64,000 nucleotides of DNA, taken from positions 5,328 to 69,327 of the forward strand of contig CAYXVZ010000025.1 in the NCBI GenBank assembly GCA_964468345.1, read 5' to 3'. Shown piece by piece: positions 14,188 through 32,840 of this stretch; within the stretch, counting starts at the first letter, position 1; every line of letters starts with the position of its first letter. The translations under genes and the position numbers were made by a program. The notes below the pieces were generated by a model. It had not been told where the DNA came from. It did not search any database and saw nothing but the letters and a program-made list of their open reading frames with translations. The DNA is from an uncultured Heliobacteriaceae bacterium (GTDB lineage: Bacteria; Acidobacteriota; Blastocatellia; RBC074).

Positions 14188-14319
14188 TGAGGAAAAAGGG
14201 GAGAGTTGAGTCTATGCCACTAAAATCCATTTTCACGAAGGCGCGCTCCCTCGCCCCTCGCCCCTCAACCCTCGCCCCTGCCCTTCTCGCCCCTCGCCCT
14301 TCGCCCCTCGCCCCTTTCC
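14117..14319. repeat. GGGGCGAG-octamer composite palindrome, copy 2, spanning the junction of two permease genes
   Basis: (GGGGCGAG)n with A-rich interruptions at 14117-14185. Inverted (CTCGCCCC)n at 14248-14319. Contains the stop of 13162..14187 and the putative start of the next gene. Confidence 0.85.
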
Positions 14320-15374: not shown

Positions 15375-15411
15375 TACCATCCGCTTACTTCGGCATGAAA
15401 ACTTCAATAAA

Positions 15412-17154: not shown

Positions 17155-17317
17155 AACTCATCCCGGAGGGATGACAGCAACCAAATCAGAACAAAATACT
17201 TTGGGATAGTTTTACCACGGGGACCATGGGGAAATGACAAATAGATTCAACCTCCCTGCGCCCCCAATGTATCTACAGATGTTTGATCGTTGAATTTGTC
17301 CCGAAGGGACAACGGAG

Positions 17318-17502
17318 ATTAGCCGGTGGTGGAGCGAAGCGTAACCACCGGAACAGCGTGAAAAGATTTCGCGTCCCGGCAGGGACGCCGGACCAGTACT
17401 CATTTTCTGAATACCATCGCTTTGGTCCGGCGCCCCTGCCAGGGCGCAATACAATACTTAATCTATCCGGTGGTTACGCTTCGCTCCACCACCGGCTAAT
17501 CT
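17318..17502. mobile_element. MITE-like element: perfect 36-bp inverted repeats flanking a 113-bp core
   Basis: GATTAGCCGGTGGTGGAGCGAAGCGTAACCACCGGA (17318-17353) and its exact reverse complement at 17467-17502. Each arm is internally palindromic (CCGGTGG..CCACCGG). Small hairpins flank it (GTCCCGAAGGGAC at 17299, GCGCCTTTGGCGC at 17510). No ORF. Confidence 0.7.
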
Positions 17503-17559
17503 CCGTTGCGCCTTTGGCGCAAAGAGTTTTGTGACAGGGTGTCACGATTGCTGGCACGC

Positions 17560-17917: not shown

Positions 17918-19171
17918 ATGAAAAGAATTCTGGTTTATTCGCACGATACCTATGGATTGGGAAACATTCGACGGATGCTGGCGATTTGCGAGCACCTGGT
18001 CGAATCCGATCCGCAGCTTTCAATTCTGCTGATTACGGGTTCGCCGGTGATTCATAACCTGCGGCTGCCGCCGCAACTGGATTACATCAAACTGCCCTGT
18101 CTGACGCGCACGGAGTACGAAGGCTACGAGGTGAAATATCTCGGCACGGGCGTCGAAGAGACGATTCGGCTGCGCTCGGACCTGATTCTTTCCGCCGTCG
18201 CCAATTACAAGCCCGATCTCTTTCTGATCGACAAGAAGCCCTATGGCGTGAAGAACGAATTGCTGGTGGCGCTCAATTATGCGCGGCTGCATCTGCCCGG
18301 CGCGAAATGGGCATTGGTCCTGCGGGATATTCTCGACAGCCCCGAGCGCACGATCGATGTCTGGCGCAAGCACGGGTACAGCGAGGCCATCGAGTATTTT
18401 TATGAGCGGGTATTCGTGATGGGGACGGAGGAGATTTTCGATCTCTGCGGCGAATATCGACTGCCGAAGCCGGCCGCGAACAAGGTGCGGTATTGCGGTT
18501 ATCTCAAGCGGGCGGCCGTGGCGAAATCATGCGGCGAAGTGCGCGCGCAGTACGGCATCGAATCGGAAAAGCAACTGGTTGTCGTCACGCCGGGCGGCGG
18601 GCAGGACGGATTCCATATTCTTTCCACGTATCTCGACACGCTGGCGCTGTTGCCGCAAAGCGCGCCTTTTCACAGCGTGCTGGTCTCAGGCCCGGAAATG
18701 CCCGCCGTGCAAAAAGAATATCTGCAACGCGTCGCCGCGCGGGATGCCCGCGTCGACTTGCTCGAATTCACGAACGATTCGCTTAGCCTGATGAATGCAG
18801 CCGATCTGGTGATCTCGATGAGCGGCTATAACACGATCTGCGAACTGCTTTCTCTGCGAAAGCGGACGATTGTCGTTCCGCGGGCGCGGCCCGCGCAGGA
18901 ACAATTGATTCGTGCCCAGCGAATGCAGGACCGGAATCTGTTCCCGTTTATTCATCCGGATGAATTGAGTCCGATGCGGCTCAAGGCCGCACTGCTTGAA
19001 AGCCTGCGAGGCGGCGAGGAGAAGCCGGAAGCCTTTGCCCGCGCGTTGTCGCGCGTCGAAATGGGAGCGTTGCCCATCATCGGAAACGAAGTCGCCCAGA
19101 TGCTCTCTGCGCCTGAAAACGTTCCCGCCGCGAAGAAACGAACCTTGATTGGCAAAATCGTCTATGCGTGA
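17918..19171 (+). CDS. predicted glycosyltransferase, MurG/GT28-like (COG4671-type)
   Basis: MKRILVYSHDTYGLGNIRRMLAICEHL...LLITGSP, then C-terminal ...VISMSGYNTICELLSLRKRTIVVPR (GT-B fold, MurG-like). Paralog of 25676..26860. Confidence 0.7.
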   Translation: MKRILVYSHDTYGLGNIRRMLAICEHLVESDPQLSILLITGSPVIHNLRLPPQLDYIKLPCLTRTEYEGYEVKYLGTGVEETIRLRSDLILSAVANYKPDLFLIDKKPYGVKNELLVALNYARLHLPGAKWALVLRDILDSPERTIDVWRKHGYSEAIEYFYERVFVMGTEEIFDLCGEYRLPKPAANKVRYCGYLKRAAVAKSCGEVRAQYGIESEKQLVVVTPGGGQDGFHILSTYLDTLALLPQSAPFHSVLVSGPEMPAVQKEYLQRVAARDARVDLLEFTNDSLSLMNAADLVISMSGYNTICELLSLRKRTIVVPRARPAQEQLIRAQRMQDRNLFPFIHPDELSPMRLKAALLESLRGGEEKPEAFARALSRVEMGALPIIGNEVAQMLSAPENVPAAKKRTLIGKIVYA

Positions 19172-19178
19172 GGATTCC

Positions 19179-20573
19179 ATGTTGAACAAGCCGGATATTT
19201 CATCGACATTCGCTCCCGAAATCGCGTACGTGCTCAAGGGTTTCGGCCGCACGTCAGAAACCTTTATCAGTAATGAAATCTTTCTGCTCGAATCGCTCGG
19301 CGCGCGATTGCAGCTTTTTTCCATCAAGAAACTCGAAGGCCAGCGGCTGCATGGCGTCGTCAGCCGCATCCAGTCGCCGGTCGCCTTTTTGCCGGATGCC
19401 TCGCCGGTCAATGAAACCAATTTCCTGTTCTGGTTGCTGCTCACGCTGCCGGGCTTTTTCGGCGCGCACCTGTATCTGTTTCTCTCGCGCCCCGCGCTGT
19501 ACCTGCGCGTTCTGTTCGAATCCCTCGAATACTGCGTCCGGCTCCGGTCGAAACCGTGGATTCCCAAAAAGGTCTTTTTCAAGGAATTCATTCAGGCCGG
19601 GTATGTGGCGCGGGAGGTGCTGCGCCGGCCCTCGATCCGTCACCTGCATGCGCATTTCTGCCACGGCGCGACGACCGTCACGATGTTCGCCAGCCGCCTG
19701 GCCGGCGTGCCCTTCAGCTTCACCGCGCATGCCAAGGATATCTATCTGGAAGAACTCAATCCGCGCGATCTGCTCGACGTCAAGATGCGCCGCGCGGAGT
19801 TCGTCGTGACTTGCACCGAAGCGAATCTGCGGCATTTGAAACAGCGCGATACGGGCACGACGCCGGTTCACGCGATATATCACGGCCTGGATCTCTCGCT
19901 GTTCACGCCCGCGGAAGAGTCGGCCGCCGTTTCGATTCCTCTGCTGCTCTCGGTCGGCCGGATCGTCGAGAAAAAAGGCTTCGATTATCTGATCCGCGCC
20001 TGTCATTTGCTGCGTCGACAGGGACGCGTCTTCAAATGCCTGATCGTGGGCGGGGCCGACAAGCATTCCGAGTTTATCAAGGGGCTGATTCGCGATCTGG
20101 AACTGGAAGACGTCGTCGAGATGCGTTCTTCAGTCACGCAGGAAGAACTGAAACAAATCTATCAACAGGCCACGGTCTTCGCGCTGCCATGTTTGATCGG
20201 CGACAACGGCGACCGGGACGGCATTCCGAACGTGCTGGTCGAGGCGATGGCCATGCAGTTGCCAGTCGTTTCGACTTCGATCTCGGGCATTCCGGAACTT
20301 GTGCAATCGGGCGTGAACGGTTTGCTCGTGGCATCGCGCGATGAAGTGCGGCTCGCCGAGGCTATCCGGGCGCTCTTCGACAATCCGGGACTTCGCCAGC
20401 GCCTTGGGCGGGCCGCGCGAGCGCGCGTGCTCGAATCCTTCGATTCCAGCCGCAATACGCAATTTCTCAAAGCCCTGTTCGATGCCAGGCTGCGCGCGGC
20501 GCTGCCCGCCAGAGATCGCCGGGCGGCGGAACCGGTGCGGGAAAAAGCAGAAAGCGGGGTGCGAATCCGATGA
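19179..20573 (+). CDS. GT4 glycosyltransferase, WcaL/AmsK-like
   Basis: N-terminal ETFISNEIFLLESLGA.., central HAHF..GATTVTMFASRLAGVPFSFTAHAKD, C-terminal GT4 core (LPCLIGDNGDRDGIPNVLVEAMAMQLPVVSTSISGIPELV). GAGGA Shine-Dalgarno before the ATG at 19179. Paralog at 38185. Confidence 0.8.
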   Translation: MLNKPDISSTFAPEIAYVLKGFGRTSETFISNEIFLLESLGARLQLFSIKKLEGQRLHGVVSRIQSPVAFLPDASPVNETNFLFWLLLTLPGFFGAHLYLFLSRPALYLRVLFESLEYCVRLRSKPWIPKKVFFKEFIQAGYVAREVLRRPSIRHLHAHFCHGATTVTMFASRLAGVPFSFTAHAKDIYLEELNPRDLLDVKMRRAEFVVTCTEANLRHLKQRDTGTTPVHAIYHGLDLSLFTPAEESAAVSIPLLLSVGRIVEKKGFDYLIRACHLLRRQGRVFKCLIVGGADKHSEFIKGLIRDLELEDVVEMRSSVTQEELKQIYQQATVFALPCLIGDNGDRDGIPNVLVEAMAMQLPVVSTSISGIPELVQSGVNGLLVASRDEVRLAEAIRALFDNPGLRQRLGRAARARVLESFDSSRNTQFLKALFDARLRAALPARDRRAAEPVREKAESGVRIR

Positions 20574-22549
20574 TTGCAAAAACGGCTCATCCAATTTTTC
20601 AGGGCGTCTGCGGGACGCTTTCGCGCGGGGCTTTGCTGAATTACTTTTCGCGCCGCGAATCGGTTCGGTATTTTCCCGTGATCGATGAAACCCAGACCAG
20701 TCCAACCCGGACCGCCCAGGTCTTGCAGAACATTTTCGAGTTCAACGAAGAAGCGCATCGCCTGCCGCCCGATTTCGATTGGACCCAAAACCCGAGCCCG
20801 GATGTCGAGTGGCTGATCCTGTTGCACAAGTTCTATTACGCGACGGGACTCGGCATTGCGTACGATGAGTCATGGGATGAGCGCTATGCGCGCAAATGGA
20901 TTGAACTGACGCAGCGCTGGATGGATCAGGTCCCGCCGGATTTTCTGCCGAGCGATGTCGCCGGGCGAAGGATTCAGAACTGGATTTCAGCGCATTACTA
21001 TTTCATCAACCAGATGTTGCCGGTCTCGATCGGGCCGGAATTTTATGACCGCTTTCTGGAATCGCTTCACGCGCAGGTGGGGCATTTGCGCAACAATCTC
21101 ACACCGTCGCGCAATCATCGCACGCTCGAACTGTGGGCGATTTTCTATGCCGCGGTCGTTTTTCCCGAATTTCGCGAATCGCGCGCCTGGCGCGAGTTTG
21201 CGATCGAGGAACTGGCCCGAAATGCGGAATCGGATTTTCTGGCGGATGGCGTTCACTGCGAACTGTCGACGGACTATCACCACATCGTCCTGCGAAACTT
21301 CCTGCACGTCGTGCGCCTCGCGCGAATGAATTCGATCTCGCTTCCGCGGGCGCTCGAAAAGAAAGTGAAACTCGCGCTGCAGTTCGCGATGCACGCGCAC
21401 CGGCCGGACGGCGCGATTCCGGCGCTCAGCGATGGGGACAGCATGTCTTATCTGCCGCTGCTGCAATGGGGCGCCGAACTCTACGATGACGAAGCGATGC
21501 TTTATGTCGCGACCCAAGGCAAGCAGGGACGGCCGCCCGCCGATCGTTGCCGCGCTTTTCCGCAGGGCGGCTATTACACGCTGCGCAGCGGTTGGGGAGG
21601 TCGTGAATCGGCCTTCGGCGATGAGCGCGCTCTGATCTTCGACTGCGGTCCGATCGGCGAGGGCAATCACGGCCATCTCGATCTATTGCATTTCGAGGCT
21701 TCCGCCTATGGACAATCGCTGATCGTCGATCCGGGCCGTTACACATATCACGAGCCCAAGGAGGATGGGGAATACAACTGGCGCGTGCATTTTCGCCGGA
21801 CCCGCGCGCATAACACGGTTGTGATCAACGATCAGGATCAGGCGCGCTATGAATTTCGAAAGTCGAAATTCAAGATCTCCGGGCCGCATCCGGGCTATCG
21901 AATGAATCAATTCGTCTCCCTCGCGGGGCTCGATTACCTGCACGGCACGGCCCTCAGCCACGAATATCCGGCCGTGCACGAGCGGAAGATCCTTTTTGCC
22001 GCCGGCGAATACTGGATCGTTCTCGACCGGCTGACGGCCGAAACCCCGCACCAGTATGAACAATTGTTTCATCTGTCCGACGCCGCGCATGGGCGCGTAA
22101 CGGGAGTCATCAATGGGGAAACGCGCATCGTCGATGCTCCGCACCTGCGCATCGCCAGCCTGCGTGAAGACGATTGCGCGATGACGATTGAAAGCGACTG
22201 GGTCTCGCGGGTATATGGATCGAAACATCCCGCCCCTGTGTTGTGCTTCCGGCGCAATGCCGCGACGACGGATTTCACGACGGTCTTGCTCCCCTATCGG
22301 GATCAGCGGCCCGGACTGTCGATCGAGCCCGTGCTCATCGAAGGCGGCGCAAACGAATGCACGGCCTTTCGCGTGAAGATCGAACGCAACGGCGAGCGGA
22401 TCGAAGATCTTTTCGCGATCGTTCATTCGCGCCGCCGGGAATCGTATGCCTGCGACGGCATCGAGTTTTCCGGCACGGCGCTGCACGTTCGGCGAAATGC
22501 GAAAGGGCAGGCGATCACCCGGAACGTGGTTCCTTTCATTGAGTCATAA
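20570..22549 (+). CDS. heparinase II/III-like protein (polysaccharide-lyase-like)
   Basis: ATGA overlap with the upstream gene. N-terminal alpha/alpha toroid region (..WLILLHKFYYATGL.., NHRTLELWAIFYAAV). C-terminal Hepar_II_III region (GNHGHLDLLHFEASAYGQSLIVDPGRYTY, HNTVVINDQDQ). Confidence 0.8.
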   Translation: MIAKTAHPIFQGVCGTLSRGALLNYFSRRESVRYFPVIDETQTSPTRTAQVLQNIFEFNEEAHRLPPDFDWTQNPSPDVEWLILLHKFYYATGLGIAYDESWDERYARKWIELTQRWMDQVPPDFLPSDVAGRRIQNWISAHYYFINQMLPVSIGPEFYDRFLESLHAQVGHLRNNLTPSRNHRTLELWAIFYAAVVFPEFRESRAWREFAIEELARNAESDFLADGVHCELSTDYHHIVLRNFLHVVRLARMNSISLPRALEKKVKLALQFAMHAHRPDGAIPALSDGDSMSYLPLLQWGAELYDDEAMLYVATQGKQGRPPADRCRAFPQGGYYTLRSGWGGRESAFGDERALIFDCGPIGEGNHGHLDLLHFEASAYGQSLIVDPGRYTYHEPKEDGEYNWRVHFRRTRAHNTVVINDQDQARYEFRKSKFKISGPHPGYRMNQFVSLAGLDYLHGTALSHEYPAVHERKILFAAGEYWIVLDRLTAETPHQYEQLFHLSDAAHGRVTGVINGETRIVDAPHLRIASLREDDCAMTIESDWVSRVYGSKHPAPVLCFRRNAATTDFTTVLLPYRDQRPGLSIEPVLIEGGANECTAFRVKIERNGERIEDLFAIVHSRRRESYACDGIEFSGTALHVRRNAKGQAITRNVVPFIES

Positions 22550-22589
22550 GGGCGCTATTTGTGCCTCACCATAACGGAGGAAAGAAAAA

Positions 22590-22680
22590 TTAAAAGGCAA
22601 AAGGCAAATATCAAAAGGCAAAAAGATTGCCGGAAAGTCGATGTGATAAGGCGAGGTTCGCACTTTTGCCTCTTGATTTC
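22590..22680. repeat. GCAAAAG-family palindrome, copy 3
   Basis: TAAAAGGCAAAAGGCAAATATCAAAAGGCAAAAAG ... CACTTTTGCCTCTTGATTTC, after the stop of the heparinase-like gene. Confidence 0.8.
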
Positions 22681-22760
22681 TTTGACAGGGGGCCAATCTT
22701 ATCCTGCTCTGATTTATCGGTCTTGAATTTTTAGATCGGTTTGCAGTTGCGTGTACGGTC

Positions 22761-22844
22761 AGCCACGAATGCACACGAATAAGCACGAATGACGCTACGC
22801 CAGATCATTAAGTTCATTGGTGTTCATTCGTGAATATTCGTGGC
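22761..22844. repeat. CACGAAT-repeat palindrome upstream of the kinase/GT/ABC operon
   Basis: GCCACGAATGCACACGAATAAGCACGAATGAC ... AGTTCATTGGTGTTCATTCGTGAATATTCGTGGC: three direct then three inverted CACGAAT units, 60-150 nt upstream of the 22906 start. Confidence 0.75.
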
Positions 22845-22905
22845 AAATAATTCTCTAAATTTTCATACACTGAGATGAAAATTGCTCTAGGAGTGCCTGA
22901 AACAA

Positions 22906-24372
22906 ATGATTACGCAAGCAGTACCAAATTGCGATTCCATGCTGCCGCAACTCGATTGGGTGTTGAACCCGGCGCGAATGCGGCTGATTTTTGCCGAAGC
23001 CCTTTTTGCGGAATCGGCGCGATACCGGATTGCGGAATGCGAAATTCTGCAAACGCGATACAAGCCAGGCAAAAACTGTCTGGTCAGCTATGGGATAAAA
23101 ATCATCGACGCCGAAACCGGCGAAGGCTTCACGCAAATGCTGTGCGCGCGGATCTATCCGCCCGAAGCCAGCCGCTCCCGCTTTGCGAAGACGTTTCCGC
23201 ATCCGGCGGCACCCGCGCCTTTCAAGGCATCGGTGATTCATCTGCCCGCGCTCGAGATGATCGTCTGGCTGTTTCCCTGCGAGCGAAAATTGACGGGCCT
23301 GCCGCAACTTGCGGACGCGGGGTTGCTCGAACGAGAGATTCTGCCGCCGGTGATCGCCGCGAATTTCGGCGCGGAATGGGGAATTGCCGAGTTGGGCACA
23401 GAGATCGTTCATTACGTTGCCGAGCATACCTGCATGCTGCGAGCGCAGGTTCGATTGCAAAATGAGCGGACCGGCGAACAACGGCATGAAACGCTGTTCG
23501 GGAAAACCTATTACAACGACGATGGCGCGCGAAGCTTTCAAACAATGCGGCAATGCGTGGAGCAGAAAGGGCGTGTCGCCTTTGCCCGGCCGCTCGCCTA
23601 TCAGGCGGAAATTCGCACGCTGTGGCAGCTCGGACTTGCGGGGCATTCCCTGCATGAAGAGCGCAAATCAGGCCGAATAGGAAGGAGCTTCCGGCCGCAA
23701 TTGCGAAAGGCCGGCGCGGCGTTGGCGGCATTTCATCAGATTCCGGTGGATGGGATTCCGCGGCAGTCCGAGGCGGAGTGCCTGGCGCGTCTCGACCGGC
23801 TCGACCAGATGGTTGCGATTGCGCGGCCCGCGCACGCGCAACGCGTGGGGGAATTGATCGAGGCCATCAAATGTGGGCGGCCGGCCTTACGGTCCGTCGC
23901 GACCCTGCATGGCGATCTGCATCTGAAAAATTTTTTCCTGAGCAACGGTGAGATTGCCATGATCGATCTCGATAACGTTCACGTAGGCGATCCGCATCTG
24001 GAGCTCGGCAGCTTTCTGGCCAGTCTCTATTTTCAGGAACTGTTGAACGGAAGGCGCCTCGACGCCGCCCGCGTCGATGGACAGGTCTTTGTGAACGCGT
24101 ATGTGGAATGGATTCCATGGACGATCGAGCAGGGGGCGCTGGAATGGGCCACCGCTTATGCGCTGCTGTCCGAGCGCGTCTATCGGCTGATTACGCGATG
24201 CAAGCATGACGACGCATCAATCCTGGAGCGCCTGCTCGATTGCGCGGAGGAACTGATCGCCCGAACGCTTTTTTCGTCGGAAGCGCCTCAAGACGGTGTC
24301 GCCGAACCCACTTTCATGGAAAGGAACCAGCCGCAATGGAATTTGAGCATCTCGTCCGGCCGCAGGGCGTAA
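22906..24372 (+). CDS. aminoglycoside-phosphotransferase (APH)/protein-kinase-like fold protein
   Basis: GGAG Shine-Dalgarno 12 nt upstream. Catalytic-loop-like HGDLHLKNFFLSNGEIAMIDLDNVHVGDPHLELGSF (Brenner motif HGDxHxxN plus a D-loop). Confidence 0.7.
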   Translation: MITQAVPNCDSMLPQLDWVLNPARMRLIFAEALFAESARYRIAECEILQTRYKPGKNCLVSYGIKIIDAETGEGFTQMLCARIYPPEASRSRFAKTFPHPAAPAPFKASVIHLPALEMIVWLFPCERKLTGLPQLADAGLLEREILPPVIAANFGAEWGIAELGTEIVHYVAEHTCMLRAQVRLQNERTGEQRHETLFGKTYYNDDGARSFQTMRQCVEQKGRVAFARPLAYQAEIRTLWQLGLAGHSLHEERKSGRIGRSFRPQLRKAGAALAAFHQIPVDGIPRQSEAECLARLDRLDQMVAIARPAHAQRVGELIEAIKCGRPALRSVATLHGDLHLKNFFLSNGEIAMIDLDNVHVGDPHLELGSFLASLYFQELLNGRRLDAARVDGQVFVNAYVEWIPWTIEQGALEWATAYALLSERVYRLITRCKHDDASILERLLDCAEELIARTLFSSEAPQDGVAEPTFMERNQPQWNLSISSGRRA

Positions 24373-25679
24373 TCACAAGCCTGCAGCATCGACTGCCGAA
24401 TCTGTCGCAGGGAGACTTCGAAATCGATCAGTGCCGGATTCTGCACCTGAATTACAAGCGGTATCTCAAGCCCGCCTCGCGGGACAAGTCCTGTTTATCG
24501 GCCGCCTATCAACTCGAGATCGAGCGCAGGACGACCGGCGAGCGGAATTCGCAGATCATTTACGCCAAGGCTTTTCTCGGGAACCGCAGCTACGGTGAAT
24601 TGGAGAAAGCCTTGCGCCGCCCCTTGCGCCCCACAAAACTTGGCATTCCGCTGGTTCATCTGAACGATCTCGGGATGGTGATCTGGACCTTTCCGAACGA
24701 TCCGGAAATGACATGGCTCGGGGAATTGACGGATGCCGAAGCGGTTCGAAAGCATCTGCCCATCGAGGCCGATGCCGACCTTGAAATCGAGATCGTCAAT
24801 TATCGTCCTGAAGTGCGATGCACCCTGCGGTATGAATTTGACGGCCGCGCGCTCTATGGCAAAACCTTTTGCGACGATCGCAGTGCGGAGATTTACCGGC
24901 GAATGGAATGGCTCTGGACCTTGCAGCGGCAAGCGCCCGGCGCGTTTCCGATGGCGCAGCCGCTCGGCTATGACAAATCGCTGCGCACGATCTGGCAGGA
25001 GGAATGGACCGGTGAACCGTTGGCGGCGGCGCTCACTTTTGAGAATTACGCTGCCATCGCGGCGCAGATCGCAGCCCGGCTCGCTTTTCTGCATCAGGCC
25101 GCCGTGCCGGCCTCTTTGCCCACCGAATCGCGCCTCGATCCGGAGGCACAGCTCGACGAGGTGAAAAAGAAAATCGATAAGCTTTGCATGGCCTTTCCGC
25201 CGCTTGCGTCCCAGTTGCAGCGGCTCGGGACGGAATTGCTGCTCAAACAACGGCTCCTGCCGGAAGCGCGGCCCTGTCTGCTGCACGGGGATTTTCATTT
25301 GCGGCAGATGCGCATCCGGCGGGACGAGATCGCGCTATTTGACTTCGACGAATTGGCCGCCGGCGATCCGGCCGAGGATCTGGCCAACTTCATTGCGGAC
25401 ATGTATGCGCATACCTCGGGATATGCCGTCGAGGAATATCCGTTGCTTCCTTCGCTCGCCCCCAATGTCGCCTCCGCCCTGCTCGATTCGTACATGCAAT
25501 GCACAACGGCCGCCGTCGCGCCGGATCGCCTGCAATGGCATCTGGCCGTGCAATCGCTGACGCGGGCCTATCGCGCCTGGCTGCAGCAGCCGCCTCGCCT
25601 GGAAGAACAGGTGCAATATTTAATCGACTTCGCGTATCAAACGCTGATGAGTTCGACACTCAACGTCAGCAGGATATGA
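24336..25679 (+). CDS. APH/kinase-like fold protein (second, tandem)
   Basis: LLHGDFHLRQMRIRRDEIALFDFDELAAGDPAEDLANFIADMY. Start at MEFEHLV overlaps the upstream gene by 37 nt; the start could be later. Confidence 0.65.
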   Translation: MEFEHLVRPQGVITSLQHRLPNLSQGDFEIDQCRILHLNYKRYLKPASRDKSCLSAAYQLEIERRTTGERNSQIIYAKAFLGNRSYGELEKALRRPLRPTKLGIPLVHLNDLGMVIWTFPNDPEMTWLGELTDAEAVRKHLPIEADADLEIEIVNYRPEVRCTLRYEFDGRALYGKTFCDDRSAEIYRRMEWLWTLQRQAPGAFPMAQPLGYDKSLRTIWQEEWTGEPLAAALTFENYAAIAAQIAARLAFLHQAAVPASLPTESRLDPEAQLDEVKKKIDKLCMAFPPLASQLQRLGTELLLKQRLLPEARPCLLHGDFHLRQMRIRRDEIALFDFDELAAGDPAEDLANFIADMYAHTSGYAVEEYPLLPSLAPNVASALLDSYMQCTTAAVAPDRLQWHLAVQSLTRAYRAWLQQPPRLEEQVQYLIDFAYQTLMSSTLNVSRI

Positions 25680-26860
25680 ACCGATCGATGAAGAGAAAAG
25701 TTTTATTTTATTGCCAGCACGTTCTTGGCATGGGCCATCTGGTTCGCAGCGCCGAAATCGTTCGCGGCCTGATCGATGAAGGAATGTCGGTTTCGTTTCT
25801 CAACGGAGGCGAACTGGCGCCGGGCACCGCGCTGCCCGTGGGAATGCGCGTCGTCATGCTGCCGGCGCTGGCCTCGGATGCGGATTTCAAGGATCTGCGC
25901 GCGGCCGATTCCTCGCTGGCGGTTGAAGAGATTCTGCAACGGCGCAAGGAAATGATTCTCGCGGAATATCGCCGCTTTCAACCGGACGTTCTGGTGATCG
26001 AACTGTTTCCCTTCGGTCGCAGGAAATTCGCTTTCGAATTGATGCCCCTGCTCGAAGAAGTTCGCGCTCACGGCGGCCGGACGAAAATCGTTTGCAGCTT
26101 GCGCGATATCCTGGTGAGCAAGCGCGATCAAACGCGATTTGAGGACAAGGTGATCGCCGCGATGAACGAATATTTCGATCTGTTGCTCGTTCATTCCGAT
26201 CCGCGGCTGCAAACGCTCGATGAAACTTTTCCGCGGATCGGCGAAATCCGAACGCCGATCCGCTATACCGGCTTTGTCGCGGAGCAGGTGGACGAAACAG
26301 CATCCGCGGAGCCCGTAGCCGCGGGACTGGCGCGAATTCTGGTCAGCATCGGCGGCGGCCGGGTCGGCGCGGAGTTGCTGGAATCCTCGATCGCCGCCAG
26401 CCGCGTGCTCGACGGCCTGTTGCCGCATCGGATGCAGCTTTTCGCCGGACCGTATATGGCCGAAGAGGAATACCGGCGGTTGCGGGAACTCGCGGCGCGC
26501 GCGCCGTCGGTTCGATTCAATCGGCATACGACCCGTTTTCTTTCGCATTTGAAAGTCGCGGACCTGTCGGTGAGCATGGCCGGATACAACACCTGCATGA
26601 ATATTTTGACCACCGGAACGCGATCGCTTGTCGTGCCGTTCACGGGCGGAAACAACCAGGAACAGACGATTCGGGCGCAAAAGCTCGAACAGCTCGGCGC
26701 GCTGCGCATGCTTGCGCCCGGTGAGCTCCAGCCGGATTTGCTGGCGCGCCGAATTCTTCATTCGCTGGAGCAGGATCGCGGGCGACCGAGCCCGCTCGAT
26801 CTGAACGGGCGAAAGACCGCCGCGCGCGAAATCGCGCTCTGCGCGGGAGGCAACGGATGA
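25676..26860 (+). CDS. predicted glycosyltransferase, MurG/GT28-like (COG4671-type), paralog of 17918
   Basis: ATGA overlap with the upstream stop. RKVLFYCQHVLGMGHLVRSAEIVRGL.., C-terminal ..LSVSMAGYNTCMNILTTGTRSLVVPF. Confidence 0.7.
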   Translation: MNRSMKRKVLFYCQHVLGMGHLVRSAEIVRGLIDEGMSVSFLNGGELAPGTALPVGMRVVMLPALASDADFKDLRAADSSLAVEEILQRRKEMILAEYRRFQPDVLVIELFPFGRRKFAFELMPLLEEVRAHGGRTKIVCSLRDILVSKRDQTRFEDKVIAAMNEYFDLLLVHSDPRLQTLDETFPRIGEIRTPIRYTGFVAEQVDETASAEPVAAGLARILVSIGGGRVGAELLESSIAASRVLDGLLPHRMQLFAGPYMAEEEYRRLRELAARAPSVRFNRHTTRFLSHLKVADLSVSMAGYNTCMNILTTGTRSLVVPFTGGNNQEQTIRAQKLEQLGALRMLAPGELQPDLLARRILHSLEQDRGRPSPLDLNGRKTAAREIALCAGGNG

Positions 26861-27618
26861 ATGAGGAACTGAGCCTGCTGCGCCAGGCGCTCGAACAACT
26901 CGAACAGGAAGGGCGCGCCATCGACGTTTTTTTCCGGGATGACGACATCGACTGCAAGGAAGATTCGTTGCGGCGCATGCTGGATGTTTTTTATCTCCAC
27001 GGCGTGCCCGTCAATCTCGAAGTCATACCGGGGGCGCTGAAGGATGAGGCCGTCGGCTGGCTGCGCCAACAACTCGCGGACTTTCCCGGCCTGATCGAAT
27101 TGAATCAGCACGGCTGGATGCACACCAATCACGAACTCGAAGGAAAGAAATGCGAATTCGGTCCGTCGCGCAGCTTCGAGCAGCAGATCGCCGATCTGGC
27201 AAAAGGGAAGCACTGCATGGACCAGGCTTTCCCCGGCGCGTGGATTCCGGTCTTCACGCCGCCCTGGAACCGCTGCACGTCCGATACATACCTTGCGATC
27301 GAGGCGCTCGGCTTTCGCGCGCTTTCCAGGGATCGAGGCGATGTGCCGGTGACGGCCTATAACTTCGCGGAGATCTCGACCTCGATCGACATCATCCGAT
27401 GGAAAGGCGAGACACGGCTCAAAGAGCCCGCCGAGATTCTCGCGGCCGTTCGCGAACAAACCCGCATCGACGAGCCGATCGGCATTTTGCTTCATCACAA
27501 GGTGATGACTTCGGCCGCGCTGAGTTTGTTGTCGCTGTTGATCGAAACGCTGAGCCGGTCTCGCTCCGTGCGGTTTCACCGGTTTCAGGATTTGCTTCGC
27601 GACGAAAGGTCAGAATGA
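26857..27618 (+). CDS. polysaccharide-deacetylase-like (NodB-like) protein, tentative
   Basis: ATGA overlap. FFRDDDI (TFDDG-like motif 1), NQHGWMH (H-x-x-x-H-like motif 2), ..FTPPWNR... The assignment is weak. Confidence 0.45.
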   Translation: MNEELSLLRQALEQLEQEGRAIDVFFRDDDIDCKEDSLRRMLDVFYLHGVPVNLEVIPGALKDEAVGWLRQQLADFPGLIELNQHGWMHTNHELEGKKCEFGPSRSFEQQIADLAKGKHCMDQAFPGAWIPVFTPPWNRCTSDTYLAIEALGFRALSRDRGDVPVTAYNFAEISTSIDIIRWKGETRLKEPAEILAAVREQTRIDEPIGILLHHKVMTSAALSLLSLLIETLSRSRSVRFHRFQDLLRDERSE

Positions 27619-29459
27619 AGAGCAAAATCGGGAATCGATTTCGACATATCGTAAAGGCCCATCTGTTGCGAATGAAAGGGCGCGTGCTGCTGGCCGCGCT
27701 TTGCATGACGGCCTATATCGTGGCGGAGCTGCTGGCGCCCTGGCCGCTGAAGCTGATTTTCGATCATGTGTTGCTCGAACGGCCGCTGCCTGCAAGCCTG
27801 GCTCCGATGAGCGGCCTTTTCGCGGCCGGCAAAACGACGGCGGTGGTCGCGCTGGCGGCATCGATTCTGCTGCTCGCATTGCTGCGGGGCAGCTTTTCCT
27901 ATGCGCAGCTCTACCTGACTTCCTTCATCGGACATCGCCTGGTGTTCACGCTGCGGCAGGAACTGTTCGCCCACGTACAGCGTCTTCCGCTCGGTTTTCA
28001 CCAGCGGACGCGGGCCGGAGAACTGCTCAACAAGCTGACCGGCGACACCCAGACGCTTCGCGATGTCTTTTCGGGAGCGGCTCTCGAATTCGCCACGCAG
28101 GTGCTGATTCTGATTGGAATGTTCTGCATTCTGTTTTTGCTCAACTGGCGGCTGAGCCTGGCGGCGCTGGCGACCTTTCCGTTTCTGGGGTACGCCATCT
28201 TTTCGGTCTATCGCAAGATCAAGATCTCGGCGCGCAAACAACGCGAGAAAGAAGGCCGGGTGGCCGCGCGCGTCAGCGAGGTCTTCGGCGCGGTGCATCT
28301 GGTCAAAGCCTTTGCCCGCGAAAATCACGAACAGAAACTTTTCGATGCCGAAAATTCCGAAACGCTGAACGACACGCTGCGCACCTCGCGGCTGGAAGCG
28401 CGCGCTTCGCGCGCGGTCGAGGTGATCAATTCCTGCGGCATCTGCCTCGTCGTTCTGTTCGGCGCGCTGCTGGTGGTGCGCGGCGAAATGACGCCCGGCG
28501 GCGTGTTGATTTTCACGGCGTATCTCACATCGATGTACAAGCCCCTGCGCAGCATGGCGAAACTCACCACGCAGTTTTCACGCGCGCAGGTGAGCGCCGA
28601 ACGCATTTCAATGCTGCTCGAAACCAAAACCGAAGAACACGGCGACGGCGGCGTCAAAGTGGGCCGGCTGCATGGCGACATCAGATTCGGGCAGGTGTGG
28701 TTCGGTTACGAGCCGTCGCAGATGGTCCTGCGCAGCGTCTCTTTCGCCATCCAACCCGGCCAACTGGTGGCGCTGGTCGGCTCGTCGGGCGCGGGCAAAT
28801 CGACGATCGCAAACCTGTTGATGCGGATGTATTCGCCGCAATCCGGCGCCATCTTTATCGACGGCCGGGACGCGCGCGGCATCGATCGACAGTCGCTTCG
28901 CAATCAGATTGCCGTGGTGCTGCAGGATTCGCTGTTGTTCGGCTTTTCCATTCGCGACAACATCGCCTATGGCAAGCCCGGCGCGACGATGGAAGAGATC
29001 GTGCTTGCGGCCAAACACGCGCACGCGCACGAATTCATTCTCGGGCTTCCCGATGGGTACGACACGATGCTCGGCGAACGGGGTTGCACGCTTTCCGGCG
29101 GACAACGCCAGCGCCTGTGCCTGGCGCGGGCGCTGCTCAAGGAATCCTCCATCGTTCTGCTGGATGAGCCCACGGCCGCGATCGATGCCGAATCGAGCGC
29201 CCTGATCGATCGAACCATTGCCGCGTGGCGGCGGGGCAAGACCACGCTCGTCATCACGCACTCGTTTTCGAATATGCAGAAATACGACAAGATCATCGTC
29301 CTCAAACAGGGAAAGGTTCTCGAAATCGGCACGCATCAGCAACTGCTCGCCGCGCGGGGATATTATTTCGATCTGTACCGATTGCAGGGCCGCGGCGGCG
29401 ACGACTCCCCGGCCCCGGCTCCGCCCCGCTATCGGGAACAGAGCATCATCAATCTATAG
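27615..29459 (+). CDS. ABC exporter, fused TMD-NBD (MsbA/type-I exporter-like)
   Basis: ATGA overlap. Six TM helices, then Walker A GSSGAGKST, Q-loop, signature LSGGQRQRLCLARAL, Walker B IVLLDEPTAAID, H-loop LVITH. Confidence 0.85.
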   Translation: MKSKIGNRFRHIVKAHLLRMKGRVLLAALCMTAYIVAELLAPWPLKLIFDHVLLERPLPASLAPMSGLFAAGKTTAVVALAASILLLALLRGSFSYAQLYLTSFIGHRLVFTLRQELFAHVQRLPLGFHQRTRAGELLNKLTGDTQTLRDVFSGAALEFATQVLILIGMFCILFLLNWRLSLAALATFPFLGYAIFSVYRKIKISARKQREKEGRVAARVSEVFGAVHLVKAFARENHEQKLFDAENSETLNDTLRTSRLEARASRAVEVINSCGICLVVLFGALLVVRGEMTPGGVLIFTAYLTSMYKPLRSMAKLTTQFSRAQVSAERISMLLETKTEEHGDGGVKVGRLHGDIRFGQVWFGYEPSQMVLRSVSFAIQPGQLVALVGSSGAGKSTIANLLMRMYSPQSGAIFIDGRDARGIDRQSLRNQIAVVLQDSLLFGFSIRDNIAYGKPGATMEEIVLAAKHAHAHEFILGLPDGYDTMLGERGCTLSGGQRQRLCLARALLKESSIVLLDEPTAAIDAESSALIDRTIAAWRRGKTTLVITHSFSNMQKYDKIIVLKQGKVLEIGTHQQLLAARGYYFDLYRLQGRGGDDSPAPAPPRYREQSIINL

Positions 29460-29501: not shown

Positions 29502-32135
29502 ATGTTCAGTCTGAAATCGGCGATGGCTCCGCTGGGGCTCGCAATCGCCTTGCCATTGGTGTGTCTTGCGCAGAATACGGTTGCCGAATTGCCGGGAAAC
29601 TGGCCGATCCGCACGCCCAAATGGACGCAGGAAACGAAGACGTCCGGCCTGACGGGCACGGTGGAAGATCCAACCGGCGCCGTCATTCCGAATGCCGCGG
29701 TGACGCTGACGGGAAAAACGAACGGCCAGGTCAAAAAAGTCGTGGCGGACGCGGCGGGCGGTTTCAGCATTTCGGACGTGCCCGCCGGCGATTACATTCT
29801 CAAGGCAAAGGCGGAAGGCTTCGAATCCGCGGAGCGGGAGCTGAAAGTCGGCGCGGGGCCGATGGCGCCGATTCAACTGCAACTTCGCATTGCAGCCAAG
29901 GGCGAAGAGGTTAATGTGAGCGGCAAGAGCCGCGATGAGGAAGATCGCATCACGCTCGATCGCAACGCCGATCGACTGACGCTCGATGAAGACCTGCTCA
30001 AATCGCTGCCGTCGAACGCCGACAATATTCTCGGCGTTGCGGGCAATTTCGTTTCGCCGGGAGCGCTCGGCGGCGAAGGCCTCACCATCAGCGTCGATGG
30101 CGTCGAATCGGGCGGATTGTCGCTGCCGGCCAATTCGATCAAACGGCTGCGCATCAATCGCAATCCCTATTCGGCCGAATTTCGCCGGCCGGGCAAGGCC
30201 CGCATCGAAGCGCAGACCGATGAAGGCTCGTTGCGGCGTTTTCGGGGAAGGTTCGCAATGTACGCGCGAAACTCCGCGTTCGATGCGCGCAATGCCTTTG
30301 CGCGGACGCGCCCCGACCTCGACCGAAAGCTGTTCGAAGCAAATCTATCCGGCCCGATTCTCGCGAAGCGGATGGCCTTTCTGATCAGCGGCGAACGCCT
30401 GCTCAATGACGAAAGCGCGATCATCAATGCCCGCACCCTCGCCGGCCCGGTCGTGTCGAACGTCGTGACGCCCGAACGGCGAACCGGCTTTCTGGCCCGG
30501 TTGGAATATCGCCCCCGGGACAGCCACACGCTGTCGCTGCTGTACAACTATCGCGATCAGCTTGAAAGCAATCGCGGCATCGGCGGATTGCGCCTGGCCG
30601 AGCAGGCGATCAATACGCGGCAGCGAATCAACCGGCTGCAGTTCACCGATCGGCTGGTTCTTTCGCCCCGGCTGCTGAATGAATTTCGCGTTGTGGCGCA
30701 GCGTGAAAATCTGATTCGCGGCATGGCGGGCGCTTCGCCGGCGATCGTCGTCATCGGCGCCTTCACGGGCGGCCCGGCCGCGACCTTTCGAAAAGTCGAT
30801 GAAACCTCCGTGCGCATTGTGGACATCGCAAGCTATGTGGCCGGCCGGCATTCGCTCAAATTCGGCGGCGAGTTTCGCCCGAATCGCATTGCTGCGACCG
30901 ATCAATCGAATTTCGCGGGGACCTTCGAATTTTCGAGCCTCGATCAATTCGCGTCACAGCGGCCGTTTGTTTATCGCATCAATCGCGGCCTGCCGCAGGT
31001 CCTGTTCTCGCAGAACGAAGTCGCCGGTTTCATTCAGGACGATTGGAAGCTGCGCCGCAATCTGAACGTCGTGTTCGGCGCCCGCTATCAATGGCAACAG
31101 AATCTGGAAGACCGGAACAATATCGCGCCGCGATTGTCTGTGGCCTATCAGCCGGGCGGCGATCAAAAGACCGTGATTCGCGCCGGCATCGGCATGTTTT
31201 ATGAGCGCGTCGCCGAGGAAGTCACACAACGCGCCCGGCTTTATGACGGCGCGCGCATTCGCGAAACGGTGATTGCCAATCCGTCCTTTCCGATTGCGTC
31301 GCAACCCGCGGGATCGCAACCGCCGCCCAGCCTCGTTCGCGTCGCTCCCAACCTGCGCGCGCCCTATCTGTGGCAGGCAGGCGTCAGCGTCGAGCGCGAA
31401 CTGCGCAAGGGAACGCAACTCACCGTCGAATATCAGGCGCTCAACGGGCGCAAGCTGCTTCGCTCGCGCAATATCAACGCGCCGCTGCCGTCGACGGGCC
31501 TTCGTTTCGATCCGGCATTCCTGAATATCAATCAGGTGGAATCCTCGGCGGCTTCGCGCGGGCATTCGCTGGGACTGACCGTTCGCACACAGATCGGCAA
31601 GCGATTGCAGGCCATGGCGCAGTATGTTTATTCGCGGAACCGAAACGACACGAGCGGCCTGTTTTCCCTGCCGGCCAACAACTTCGATTTGCGGCCGGAA
31701 TGGGGCCGCGCCGATTTCGATCAACGACATCGTTTTAATCTGACCGGCACGGCGATGCTGCCCGCCGATTTTCAAATCGGAACGATTGTGAGCTTCGGGT
31801 CGAGCCTGCCCTATGACATCACGACGGGTTTTGACGACAACCGCGATTCAGTGGCGAATGACCGGCCCGCGGGGGGGACGCGCAATCTGGGACGCGGCCC
31901 GAATCTGGCCAGAGTCGATCTGCGGCTGACGCGCGCGTTTCGCATTCCGCGCCTGCTCGACCGGGGCCGGGATTCGACATCGAACAACCTCGAATTCAGC
32001 ATAGACATTTTCAATCTTTTCAATCGGGTCAATTTCAATAATTTCATCGGCGCGCAGAGCTCGCCCTTCTTCGGACGGGCCGCCGCCGCGGCCGAAGCGC
32101 GGGCATTGCAGTTTTCGAGCCGGTATAAGTTTTAA
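29502..32135 (+). CDS. TonB-dependent-receptor-like outer membrane protein with N-terminal CarboxypepD_reg domain
   Basis: Signal peptide. TGTVEDPTGAVIPNAAVTLTG..GQVKKVVADAAGGFSISDVPAGDYILKAKAEGF (CarboxypepD_reg). Long beta-barrel region ending ..FSSRYKF (terminal Phe). Confidence 0.8.
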   Translation: MFSLKSAMAPLGLAIALPLVCLAQNTVAELPGNWPIRTPKWTQETKTSGLTGTVEDPTGAVIPNAAVTLTGKTNGQVKKVVADAAGGFSISDVPAGDYILKAKAEGFESAERELKVGAGPMAPIQLQLRIAAKGEEVNVSGKSRDEEDRITLDRNADRLTLDEDLLKSLPSNADNILGVAGNFVSPGALGGEGLTISVDGVESGGLSLPANSIKRLRINRNPYSAEFRRPGKARIEAQTDEGSLRRFRGRFAMYARNSAFDARNAFARTRPDLDRKLFEANLSGPILAKRMAFLISGERLLNDESAIINARTLAGPVVSNVVTPERRTGFLARLEYRPRDSHTLSLLYNYRDQLESNRGIGGLRLAEQAINTRQRINRLQFTDRLVLSPRLLNEFRVVAQRENLIRGMAGASPAIVVIGAFTGGPAATFRKVDETSVRIVDIASYVAGRHSLKFGGEFRPNRIAATDQSNFAGTFEFSSLDQFASQRPFVYRINRGLPQVLFSQNEVAGFIQDDWKLRRNLNVVFGARYQWQQNLEDRNNIAPRLSVAYQPGGDQKTVIRAGIGMFYERVAEEVTQRARLYDGARIRETVIANPSFPIASQPAGSQPPPSLVRVAPNLRAPYLWQAGVSVERELRKGTQLTVEYQALNGRKLLRSRNINAPLPSTGLRFDPAFLNINQVESSAASRGHSLGLTVRTQIGKRLQAMAQYVYSRNRNDTSGLFSLPANNFDLRPEWGRADFDQRHRFNLTGTAMLPADFQIGTIVSFGSSLPYDITTGFDDNRDSVANDRPAGGTRNLGRGPNLARVDLRLTRAFRIPRLLDRGRDSTSNNLEFSIDIFNLFNRVNFNNFIGAQSSPFFGRAAAAAEARALQFSSRYKF

Positions 32136-32175: not shown

Positions 32176-32757
32176 ATGACGGACTATATAGGTCTCTCTG
32201 ATGCCGAGTTGATTTCAATGTGCCTCAAGCAGGATGCCGGTGCATGGGAAGCCCTGATTCAGAGATACCACAGGCTCATCACTTCCATCACATTCAAATT
32301 CGCCCTTACGGCCGAAGACGCCGCCGATATTTATCAACTGGTGTGCATGCGGCTCTATCAGCAGATGGCGGGGCTGCGAAAACAGGAAAAGCTCAGTTCC
32401 TGGGTGATCACCGTCACGGTCCGCGAATGCTGGAAGCTGAAGAAACACCCCCTGCTGACGAACTCCCTCGATGCCCAGGCCGAGGCGGTCGGTTTTGAGC
32501 TGGCCGATGAACGAACGGTGCCGTTCGACGAATCGCTGGTCCTGATCGAAAAGCAGCACCAGATTCGGCGCGCGATGGAGCTCTTGCCTGAAAATTGCCG
32601 TCGCATGCTCGAAATGCTGTTCTTCGAAGACGAGCCTGCCTCCTATACCGAAATCAGCCAGCGGCTCGGGACGCCGGTCCCCAGCATTGGGCCGACCCGG
32701 GCCCGGTGCCTGGAAAAAATGAAACAATCCCTCAAGACCGTCGGCTTTTTACGCTGA
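32176..32757 (+). CDS. ECF-family RNA polymerase sigma factor
   Basis: Region 2 (..ALIQRYHRLITSITFKF..AEDAADIYQLVCMRLYQ..) and region 4 HTH (LPENCRRMLEMLFFEDEPASYTEISQRLGTPVPSIGPTRARCLEKMK). Confidence 0.85.
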   Translation: MTDYIGLSDAELISMCLKQDAGAWEALIQRYHRLITSITFKFALTAEDAADIYQLVCMRLYQQMAGLRKQEKLSSWVITVTVRECWKLKKHPLLTNSLDAQAEAVGFELADERTVPFDESLVLIEKQHQIRRAMELLPENCRRMLEMLFFEDEPASYTEISQRLGTPVPSIGPTRARCLEKMKQSLKTVGFLR

Positions 32758-32840
32758 CAATGTATTTTTTTCCCGTACCTGGCTCACTCATATGCCGGCC
32801 GGAAGGAGTGTCTTCGGCTTGCGCCCATGTCCAGCAACCC

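Follow-up and report, generated by a model that had tools for sequence, protein, structure and literature searches.

A conserved operon of glycosyltransferases, maltokinase-like kinases and a heparinase III homologue: a candidate pathway for a secreted acidic glycan

The window analyzed here is a 64,000-nucleotide stretch of contig CAYXVZ010000025.1 (assembly GCA_964468345.1), numbered from its first letter. Between positions 17918 and 29459 it harbors eight open reading frames (ORFs), all on the + strand, which an initial annotation made from the letters had described as an unusual glycoconjugate operon; ORF listing and translation agree on both the genes and their coordinates. A ninth gene on the same strand follows directly. 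These genes are referred to below as G1 to G9, and together with one spacer they make up the locus as follows.

G1, 17918-19171, + strand: 417 aa, GT-B glycosyltransferase with a GT28 C-terminal-type nucleotide-sugar domain
G2, 19164-20573, + strand: 469 aa, GT4 (retaining-type family) glycosyltransferase
G3, 20570-22549, + strand: 659 aa, heparinase III (PL12) homologue, predicted cytoplasmic
Spacer, 22550-22905, no strand: 356 nt, AT-rich, between G3 and G4
G4, 22906-24372, + strand: 488 aa, sugar-kinase-like phosphotransferase with an N-terminal cap and an APH fold
G5, 24336-25679, + strand: 447 aa, second kinase, paralogue of G4
G6, 25676-26860, + strand: 394 aa (390 aa from a start at 25688), second GT28_C-type GT-B glycosyltransferase
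G7, 26857-27618, + strand: 253 aa, deacetylase-like protein of CE4 (NodB-type) fold
G8, 27615-29459, + strand: 614 aa, ABC exporter of the MsbA/HepA/NdvA type with transmembrane and nucleotide-binding domains fused
G9, 29502-32135, + strand: outer-membrane beta-barrel with signal peptide, CarboxypepD_reg and OMP_b-brl_4 domains

Most of the junctions are tight. Overlaps of 4 nt (ATGA) are found at G2/G3 (at 20570), G5/G6, G6/G7 and G7/G8, the G1/G2 overlap is 8 nt (a gap of 7 nt instead if G2 starts at 19179), and G4 and G5 share 37 nt from position 24336. The overlap at 25676 depends on the start chosen for G6, which is ambiguous: a public gene call on an identical contig begins 12 nt later, at 25688, and the G5/G6 overlap then becomes an 8-nt gap. 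The 356-nt gap between G3 and G4 divides the array into G1-G3 and G4-G8, and a further 42 nt separates G8 from G9. The idea of an eight-gene operon stands as far as the genes and their overlaps are concerned, but it had left out both this spacer and G9. The GC content at third codon positions (GC3) of G1-G9, at 0.64-0.73, is in line with that of the neighboring genes. Among G1-G8 only G8 is predicted to be an integral membrane protein; the enzymes of the G1-G7 set are without a signal peptide, and the one hydrophobic segment among them lies in G2 (residues 87-105).

Families were assigned from Pfam and NCBIfam profile scores, each set against the cut-off of its model. All of the domains named in the initial annotation were borne out in this way, and its statement that the operon matches no characterized pathway also holds. 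The proteins score below every equivalog cut-off tested, namely those of HepC, maltokinase, APH(3'), MurG, MsbA, WcaL and EpsE.

Three glycosyltransferases are encoded. G1 and G6 are paralogues of 27% identity that match the Pfam model Glyco_tran_28_C (53.7 bits for G1, against a cut-off of 22, and 46.4 bits for G6) and fall below the murG equivalog (32.7 and 36.8 bits, respectively, against 250). Their GT28 similarity is confined to the C-terminal nucleotide-sugar-binding domain, a match across both Rossmann domains being absent. G1 has neither a transmembrane segment nor a signal peptide, and its homologues, with more than 3000 matches at around 50% identity across phyla, far outnumber the relatives of G4. 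G2, which always comes after G1 in related loci, matches Glycos_transf_1 with 123 bits and lies below both equivalogs to which it was compared (EpsE, 179.6 against 400; WcaL, 121.6 against 537.6). In many phyla G6 and G7 occur as one fused protein of 660-725 aa. Sequence searches of G1, G5 and G7 against the PDB returned nothing useful. Some G1 homologues (P0093, P0109 and P0123) have the G1-type glycosyltransferase fused to a CheY-like receiver domain, and a stand-alone receiver or an OmpR-type two-component system lies ahead of many related operons; these fusions and neighbors suggest a phosphorylation-dependent control of the first glycosyltransferase.

The partner of G6, G7, passes the Pfam model DUF2334 (32.1 against a cut-off of 26), while Polysacc_deac_1 remains below threshold (17 bits against 23.1). 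Its predicted structure, with a predicted local distance difference test score (pLDDT) of 89, adopts the deformed (beta/alpha) barrel of the CE4/NodB-fold deacetylases. Residues D29, D30, H85, H89 and H214 are invariant in the orthologues, and D29-D30 (base and metal), H85-x3-H89 (metal ligands) and H213-H214 (catalytic His) are what we take to be the CE4 motifs MT1, MT2 and MT5. The pairing of a glycosyltransferase with a deacetylase is familiar from NodC/NodB, PIG-A/PIG-L and MshA/MshB.

G3 passes both Hepar_II_III_N and Hepar_II_III_C (158 and 123 bits) and finds the heparinase III structure 4mmh in the PDB with E = 1.1e-41, but it stays below the two NCBIfam HepC equivalogs, which ask for 700 and 600 bits where G3 scores 177 and 100; by sequence it appears to be a true heparinase III homologue and not an orthologue. 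In heparinase III (4MMH) the catalytic residues are Tyr294 and His424, with Asn240 in a neutralizing role (PMC12088678). The residues Y236, H367 and N182 of G3 align to these three positions and form a triad that is invariant in 67 orthologues. The enzyme shares both domains and the triad with the heparinases III of Pedobacter heparinus and Bacteroides thetaiotaomicron, yet it does not look like a secreted or periplasmic degradative enzyme: a signal peptide and a transmembrane segment are both absent by prediction, which places G3 in the cytoplasm, unlike the degradative heparinases, and its gene lies in a biosynthetic operon. G3 could act on uronates as a lyase or as a C5-epimerase; in both reactions the first step is removal of the C5 proton. 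In animals, dermatan sulfate epimerase 1 shares its fold and active-site layout with lyases of families PL8, PL12 and PL21 (PMC8006597). The archaeal glucuronic acid C5-epimerase Agl32 was considered as a further precedent for a heparinase-like epimerase and was dropped, its paper mentioning neither heparinase nor lyase. Two tandem heparinase III-like paralogues are present in nine related loci (L056, L063, L065, L066, L069, L073, L074, L076 and L085) from Nitrospira/Nitrospirota and Methylococcaceae/Methylococcales, and in L063 the G5-type kinase is doubled as well; these lineages seem to have duplicated the tailoring module.

The two kinases, G4 and G5, are paralogues of 28% identity in which an extension of around 200 residues lies N-terminal to the APH fold. 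G4 matches Pfam APH with 57.4 bits, and this general model is the only one to pass; the APH(3') resistance model NF033068 gives 19.4 bits where 205 are required. The AF2 model of G4 (pLDDT 90) has the cap, intermediate subdomain and C-lobe architecture of maltokinase, and its best Foldseek match in the PDB, maltokinase 4u94, extends along the whole protein (515 columns, E = 5.6e-12). K200, HGDLHLKN and IDLD of G4 are invariant in 77 orthologues. G5 and its orthologues keep HGDFHxxQ and FDFD, whereas G4, with HGDLHLKN/IDLD, has the canonical Asn. In maltokinase the catalytic loop consists of HGD, the Mg-binding Gln310 and DFE, and in glucosamine kinase of DVHGDFHVGQI and DFD; in both, D-x-H contacts the sugar. 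The catalytic-loop signature of G5 is thus the same as that of the maltokinase Mak and the glucosamine kinase SjGlcNK. At the level of profiles the relationship is distant: against the maltokinase model TIGR02457 (TreS_Cterm) G5 scores 18.1 bits where 375 are called for and G4 has no match, and a profile of the G4 family finds Mak in the PDB with E = 5e-4 and the glucosamine kinase with E = 0.53, matches to methylthioribose (MTR) kinase and maltokinase being only marginal.

Since the resistance models fail and the maltokinase and MTR kinase matches are marginal, G4 and G5 would seem to form a distinct sugar-kinase-like family, to which around 1,900 cluster representatives (50% identity, E <= 1e-30) belong on the G4 side. 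Fold model and motifs, with their affinity to maltokinase and glucosamine kinase, support reading both as sugar-type kinases and not as resistance APHs. The initial annotation had proposed the Kdo kinase KdkA as an analogue, and this finds no support: no member of the KdkA/WaaP family is among the Pfam and NCBIfam matches of G4 and G5 at E <= 0.01 or in the top 50 structural neighbors of the G4 model, and the closest architecture is that of maltokinase. Some metagenomic proteins are natural fusions of G4 and G5; one of them, P0284, has 910 aa and shares 47% identity with G5 in its C-terminal half. A 'conflict' domain, TCAD9, that is precomputed on some homologues was rejected; it scores 27 bits against 40 and covers the kinase catalytic loop only.

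Export is represented by G8, in which ABC_membrane (163.6 bits) and ABC_tran (123 bits) make up a fused exporter. The closest equivalog is MsbA (TIGR02203), which G8 approaches with 430.9 bits against a cut-off of 602; the HepA, NdvA/ChvA and PglK cut-offs are not reached either. No Wzx flippase, Wzy polymerase or PCP/OPX protein is found among the ORFs scanned across the window, or among the accessory families that recur in the related loci described below, which supports the ABC-exporter route proposed at the outset from the lack of Wzx, Wzy and Wza. One weak Wzy_C call lies around 7 kb upstream of a kinase-less cyanobacterial cluster (L089). G9 combines a signal peptide and a CarboxypepD_reg domain with an outer-membrane barrel (OMP_b-brl_4), and no plug domain was detected. 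Its orthologues (45-57% identity) occupy the same slot in acidobacterial loci, and in around 16 loci of other Gram-negative phyla the slot after the last core gene is filled, on the same strand, by an Alginate_exp porin. In the Chloroflexi loci there is no outer-membrane protein gene in the post-exporter slot. By its place, G9 is a candidate for the outer-membrane exit of the product.

The conservation of the locus was assessed in around 80 loci with a relative of G4, gathered from exact-context look-ups and a scan of a genome collection, by BLASTP of the window proteins against all of their ORFs. G4 is present in every locus retrieved. The recurring order, on a single strand, is G1-G2-(second GT4)-G3-G4-(G5)-G6-G7-G8, and since the same order and strand recur in around 80 loci from at least 10 phyla, the eight-gene block lies far beyond chance. 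The carriers include Acidobacteriota (Blastocatellia and Bryobacterales, among them the cultured strain F-183, with locus L087 at around 5.02 Mb of AP025252), Nitrospirota (Nitrospira and Candidatus Manganitrophus), Chloroflexota, Bacteroidota and Calditrichia, the Gamma- and Betaproteobacteria (Methylococcales, Thiothrix and Burkholderiales/Thiobacillus), and Trueperaceae, Phycisphaeraceae, Nitrospinaceae and Binatia. All eight genes are found in 35 of the 53 loci that have both G1 and G8; a reduced set of G1-G2-G4-G6-G7-G8 occurs in 10 and G1-G2-G3-G4-G6-G7-G8 in 6. The initial annotation had named two outcomes that would speak against it, kinases that are generic antibiotic-resistance APHs and an operon that is not conserved as a unit, and the findings point the other way on both. 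Overall, its reading is largely right on the content of the locus and on the non-Wzy, ABC-exported and phosphorylated nature of the proposed product.

Within the same 53 loci, G5 is found in none of the 11 that lack G3 (table 35/7/0/11, Fisher p = 4e-7, with kinship ignored). A kinase-free core of G1, G6 and a GT4 enzyme, usually with the ABC exporter, exists in cyanobacteria and other lineages, which suggests that the kinases and G3 are tailoring modules, added to a core of glycosyltransferases and an exporter. Five of the related loci (L010, L032, L044, L046 and L071) come from metagenome-assembled genomes labeled 'uncultured Heliomicrobium sp.' or Heliobacteriaceae (Firmicutes), whose operons share 45-67% identity with those of Acidobacteria; in L010 the acidobacterial G9-type outer-membrane protein and sigma factor are present too. 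These labels are probably wrong.

The other ORFs in and beside the related operons were clustered and their representatives annotated, which gave the following recurrent accessory families.

OmpR-type response regulators and two-component systems: 24 loci, upstream
Alginate_exp (AlgE-type) outer-membrane porin: 21 loci, in around 16 of which it comes straight after the last core gene, with the strand unchanged
Histidine phosphatase: 18 loci, adjoining the kinases
Fusions of a third APH-fold kinase with a predicted HIGH-type nucleotidyltransferase: 14 loci, the nucleotidyltransferase call being weak and by motif only
Additional glycosyltransferases: 11 loci
GalE/TviC-like 4-epimerases: 10 loci, in the G3-G4 interval in several Acidobacteria
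NDP-sugar 6-dehydrogenases: 6 loci

In L043 (Methylococcaceae) G7 is followed straight away by two 6-dehydrogenase genes, one of the TviB-like UDP-GlcNAc type (567 bits, where the cut-off is 592) and the other of the UDP-glucose type, together with an epimerase gene. The fused nucleotidyltransferase-kinases are around 530-630 aa long, with an HxGH motif in the N-terminal region and a weak CTP_transf_like match (E = 0.12); they are found in L021, L023, L026, L041, L047, L053, L054, L056, L062, L063, L065, L074 and L075, among others. In the loci examined this fusion and the histidine phosphatase never occur together, which suggests two alternative accessory chemistries, one of kinase with nucleotidyl activation and the other of kinase with phosphatase.

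Taken with the gene content and order, the overlaps, the conservation, the folds, the catalytic residues and the cytoplasmic location of the enzymes, these neighbors incline us, though only slightly beyond even chances, to regard G1-G9 as a conserved operon that would produce an acidic glycan for secretion, made of uronic acid and N-acetylhexosamine (HexNAc); this glycan would be N-deacetylated, uronate-modified and phosphorylated and would leave the cell by a Wzy-independent ABC-exporter route. The dehydrogenases of the relatives, together with the intact PL12 active site, argue for hexuronic acids, HexNAc-uronic acids or both in the product; a CE4 enzyme fused to a glycosyltransferase argues for HexNAc that is installed and then de-N-acetylated; the dedicated AlgE-type porin of the relatives points to a secreted anionic chain; and a product that is finished before export is suggested by the combination of enzymes that are all cytoplasmic with a single ABC exporter.

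From these considerations we infer the likely substrates, order of reactions, polymer length and identity of the product. The G1/G6 pair and the GT4 enzyme G2 would assemble an oligo- or polysaccharide in the cytoplasm from nucleotide sugars, most likely of HexNAc and hexuronic acid, and G7 would strip the N-acetyl group from the HexNAc installed by G6. G3 would abstract the C5 proton of a uronate, leading either to C5-epimerization or to eliminative trimming. Because G5 is found only where G3 occurs, and because G4 and G5 can be fused, G5 is suggested to phosphorylate the product of G3, that is, a residue or chain end made by it; G4 would O-phosphorylate the glycan at a position other than that used by G5. 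G8 would then carry the finished product over the inner membrane and G9 over the outer membrane.

Several points weigh against this scheme. The chemistry is read from sequence and models throughout, and the operon in the window is itself without a sugar dehydrogenase or epimerase, so that the uronic acid content proposed here rests on the relatives and on G3. No initiating enzyme or primer was identified, and G4 and G5 could act on free sugars rather than on a glycan. The exporters of the MsbA type are best known for the transport of lipids, lipid-linked oligosaccharides and cyclic glucans, and not of long linear polymers. The export role of G9 is drawn from its position, its family is very abundant in Acidobacteria, with another copy in the window at 3-2357, and no periplasmic adaptor is present between G8 and G9. 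The statistic for the co-occurrence of G3 and G5 takes no account of phylogenetic relatedness. Finally, the 356-nt spacer makes it uncertain whether G1-G3 and G4-G9 are transcribed together in this genome.

The initial annotation had offered a glycolipid as one possible product, and a phosphoglycolipid would be made if the GT28-like enzymes glycosylated diacylglycerol or polyprenol, G2 extended the head group, the kinases phosphorylated it and G8 flipped it to the outer leaflet. MurG, MGD1 and UgtP all glycosylate membrane lipids, the known GT28 members act on lipid acceptors, and enzymes of GT28 and GT4 together make the galactolipids of plants; G8 is closest to MsbA (430.9 bits), a polymerase and chain-length regulator are absent, and G2 has a hydrophobic segment. 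We nonetheless consider this product unlikely, since the GT28 match is limited to the C-terminal domain (with murG at 32.7 against 250), no acyltransferase or lipid-synthesis genes accompany the operon, and the cytoplasmic PL12 homologue, along with the UDP-sugar 6-dehydrogenases and alginate-type porin of the relatives, fits a soluble, secreted anionic chain of uronic acid better. The PL12 homologue and the porins also tell against a secreted small glycoside or pseudo-oligosaccharide, exported by the ABC transporter in a phosphorylated and inactive form for self-protection in the manner of streptomycin-6-phosphate and corramycin, as it would leave both unexplained. The structural neighbors of G4 include the corramycin phosphotransferase along with other antibiotic kinases, the histidine phosphatase adjoins the kinases in 18 related loci, and a GT4 enzyme with a deacetylase is a motif of the aminoglycoside, mycothiol and bacillithiol pathways. 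However, there is no cyclitol synthase, aminotransferase, nonribosomal peptide synthetase, polyketide synthase or scaffold enzyme in the window or the relatives, and stable synteny over at least 10 phyla is unusual for a secondary metabolite, which leaves such a compound improbable.

A catabolic role for the locus would fit the motif of a cytoplasmic lyase with a sugar kinase and the permeases and SBP_bac_5 protein encoded upstream (13162-17154), which are syntenic in acidobacterial relatives. Lyase and kinases would here salvage or remodel a uronic-acid oligosaccharide taken up by this Opp-like importer, and the glycosyltransferases would re-use its sugars. We rate this as very improbable, given that the importer is missing from loci outside the Acidobacteria, that the conserved core comprises three glycosyltransferases, an exporter and an outer-membrane porin, and that neither an unsaturated-uronate hydrolase nor genes for later catabolic steps are present. 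Hardly any weight can be given to the idea of a peptide or protein as the target of the glycosyltransferases and kinases, whether a surface protein or one resembling a ribosomally synthesized and post-translationally modified peptide (RiPP), in connection with the CHAT and S8 proteases encoded nearby. The RiPP kinases LxmK and TvaE are among the structural neighbors and weak NCBIfam matches to LxmK exist, but at 35 bits against 315 they lie far below the cut-off. A pair of TPR-CHAT and S8 genes does adjoin the operon here and in Chloroflexi loci, although a second TPR-CHAT gene in the window indicates that such genes are common here; there is no conserved small ORF, the ORFs of the spacer are not credible and G3 and G4 abut in relatives, and G8 is without a peptidase domain.

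The secreted uronic-acid glycan that we prefer would be made by a logic akin to that of the ABC-transporter-dependent glycan pathways, with echoes of WbdD capping, of alginate C5 chemistry and of heparan sulfate maturation. Searches of the literature with COG4671 and with the gene combination found no published description of this cluster. As in the Escherichia coli O9a system (WbdD with Wzm/Wzt) and the group 2 capsules (KpsMT), glycans would be completed in the cytoplasm by GT-B/GT4 enzymes and exported by an ABC transporter without Wzx or Wzy, and WbdD is, like the kinases proposed here, a protein-kinase-fold enzyme that phosphorylates the glycan. The exporter, however, is a fused MsbA-type half-transporter in place of the Wzm/Wzt and KpsMT ABC-2 pairs, there is no initiating enzyme for a polyprenol-phosphate or Kdo linker and no PCP/OPX, and the kinases differ from WbdD in being maltokinase-like with an N-terminal cap. 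The mycobacterial maltokinase Mak/Pep2 and the actinobacterial SjGlcNK share with them the cap, intermediate subdomain and C-lobe and the HGD/DxH loop, G5 having in addition Gln for Asn and DFD; they are set apart by marginal sequence similarity, by the absence here of a TreS or GlgE partner and by the Asn that G4 keeps. The gene of the glucosamine kinase lies in a cluster with that of a GT-B glycosyltransferase (PMC6520443), as do those of G4 and G5.

With alginate (AlgG, AlgL and AlgE) the shared idea would be that of an anionic uronic polymer modified at C5 as a polymer, and the relatives carry a porin of the AlgE family. Alginate polymerization and modification are membrane-bound and periplasmic (Alg8/44 and AlgG/L/X), whereas here the enzymes are cytoplasmic and work with an ABC pump, and the window has a TonB-receptor-like barrel in place of AlgE. 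The likeness to the maturation of animal heparan sulfate (by NDST, Glce and O-sulfotransferases, with the Fam20B xylose kinase and PXYLP1 phosphatase) is an analogy only, in that the glycosyltransferases have no homology to EXT and phosphate would replace sulfate. Taken to its limit, the analogy would make the product a phosphate-based bacterial counterpart of the heparan-sulfate-type glycosaminoglycans, with a heparosan-like backbone of HexNAc and uronate made by non-canonical GT-B enzymes and, as maturation steps in the cytoplasm, NDST-like N-deacetylation by G7, a PL12-fold C5-epimerase in G3, O-phosphorylation by G4 and G5 instead of O-sulfation and, in relatives, editing by the histidine phosphatase; it might then be the basis of some of the glycosaminoglycan-like polyanions of environmental biofilms. 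We regard this more specific picture as quite unlikely.

The carriers of the operon are ecologically central and poorly cultured, and include soil Acidobacteria, nitrite-oxidizing Nitrospira, the manganese oxidizer Candidatus Manganitrophus, methanotrophs and Chloroflexi of sludge. Metal-binding, glycosaminoglycan-like polyanions have been reported in the extracellular polymeric substances of granular sludge (PMC10483923), and should the product prove to be a uronic-acid glycan that is phosphorylated and in part de-N-acetylated, the operon would offer a candidate genetic basis for them. It would also represent a new form of exopolysaccharide tailoring, with dedicated maltokinase-like glycan kinases, and would give a cytoplasmic PL12 enzyme a biosynthetic role. 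The proposal is directly testable, in that a cultured carrier exists in Bryobacterales strain F-183 (L087) and the enzymes are all predicted to be soluble.

The G3-G4 spacer (22550-22905) has no counterpart in the eight relatives in which the junction was measured (L010-L013, L018, L030, L033 and L068), where the two frames abut or overlap; in several other Acidobacteria an epimerase gene lies between them, and tblastn gave no signal of an epimerase remnant in the spacer. It contains a 31-nt inverted repeat with three CACGAAT heptads per arm (22762-22792 and 22814-22844) and a direct repeat, AAAAGGCAAAA, at 22585-22623. Judged by these repeats, the spacer may be an acquired internal regulatory region, inserted as an operator or promoter. 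Promoter and terminator scans found sites no more frequently than in shuffled sequence, and Rfam at gathering thresholds found no riboswitch or known RNA across the window, its two long intergenic regions included. A second element of note is a near-perfect nested hairpin of around 230 nt (17295-17523) within the 763-nt intergenic region upstream of G1. Its outer arms are 58 nt long and 91% complementary and its inner arms 25 nt long; as RNA it would fold with a free energy (dG) of -161 kcal/mol (z = -17 against shuffles), and its 29-nt core, CCGGTGGTTACGCTTCGCTCCACCACCGG, occurs within the window only in its two arms. The hairpin could be an element resembling a miniature inverted-repeat transposable element, an insulator or terminator, or a structured RNA.

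Directly upstream of the operon lies the Opp/Dpp-type importer (13162-17154), with two permeases and SBP_bac_5 and no adjacent ATPase gene; it is syntenic in the acidobacterial loci L002 and L010-L013 and not in other phyla. None of the anti-phage models of PADLOC matches G1-G7, and G8 shows generic ABC ATPase similarity only. Downstream of G9, the region 32176-37666 encodes an extracytoplasmic function (ECF)-type sigma factor, a 298-aa ORF without a family match, a 980-aa TPR-CHAT protein and an S8 subtilase. The sigma factor gene (32176-32757) comes right after G9; many relatives have instead a two-component system upstream of the operon. Four Chloroflexi loci (L004/L005, L029 and L039) have a TPR-CHAT and S8 pair just ahead of their homologous operon, and several further loci have CHAT matches in its vicinity. 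The association may be real or may reflect the mere abundance of such genes, and the second TPR-CHAT gene in the window weakens a functional link to the operon. Elsewhere in the window two ORFs on the - strand, of 508 aa (38092-39618) and 279 aa (49344-50183), have coding-like GC3 and no Pfam match at E <= 1e-5. The second TPR-CHAT protein (1132 aa, 57904-61302) and a fusion of a Ser/Thr protein kinase to a long WD40 array (1176 aa, 52295-55825) make up a signaling repertoire typical of developmentally complex bacteria.

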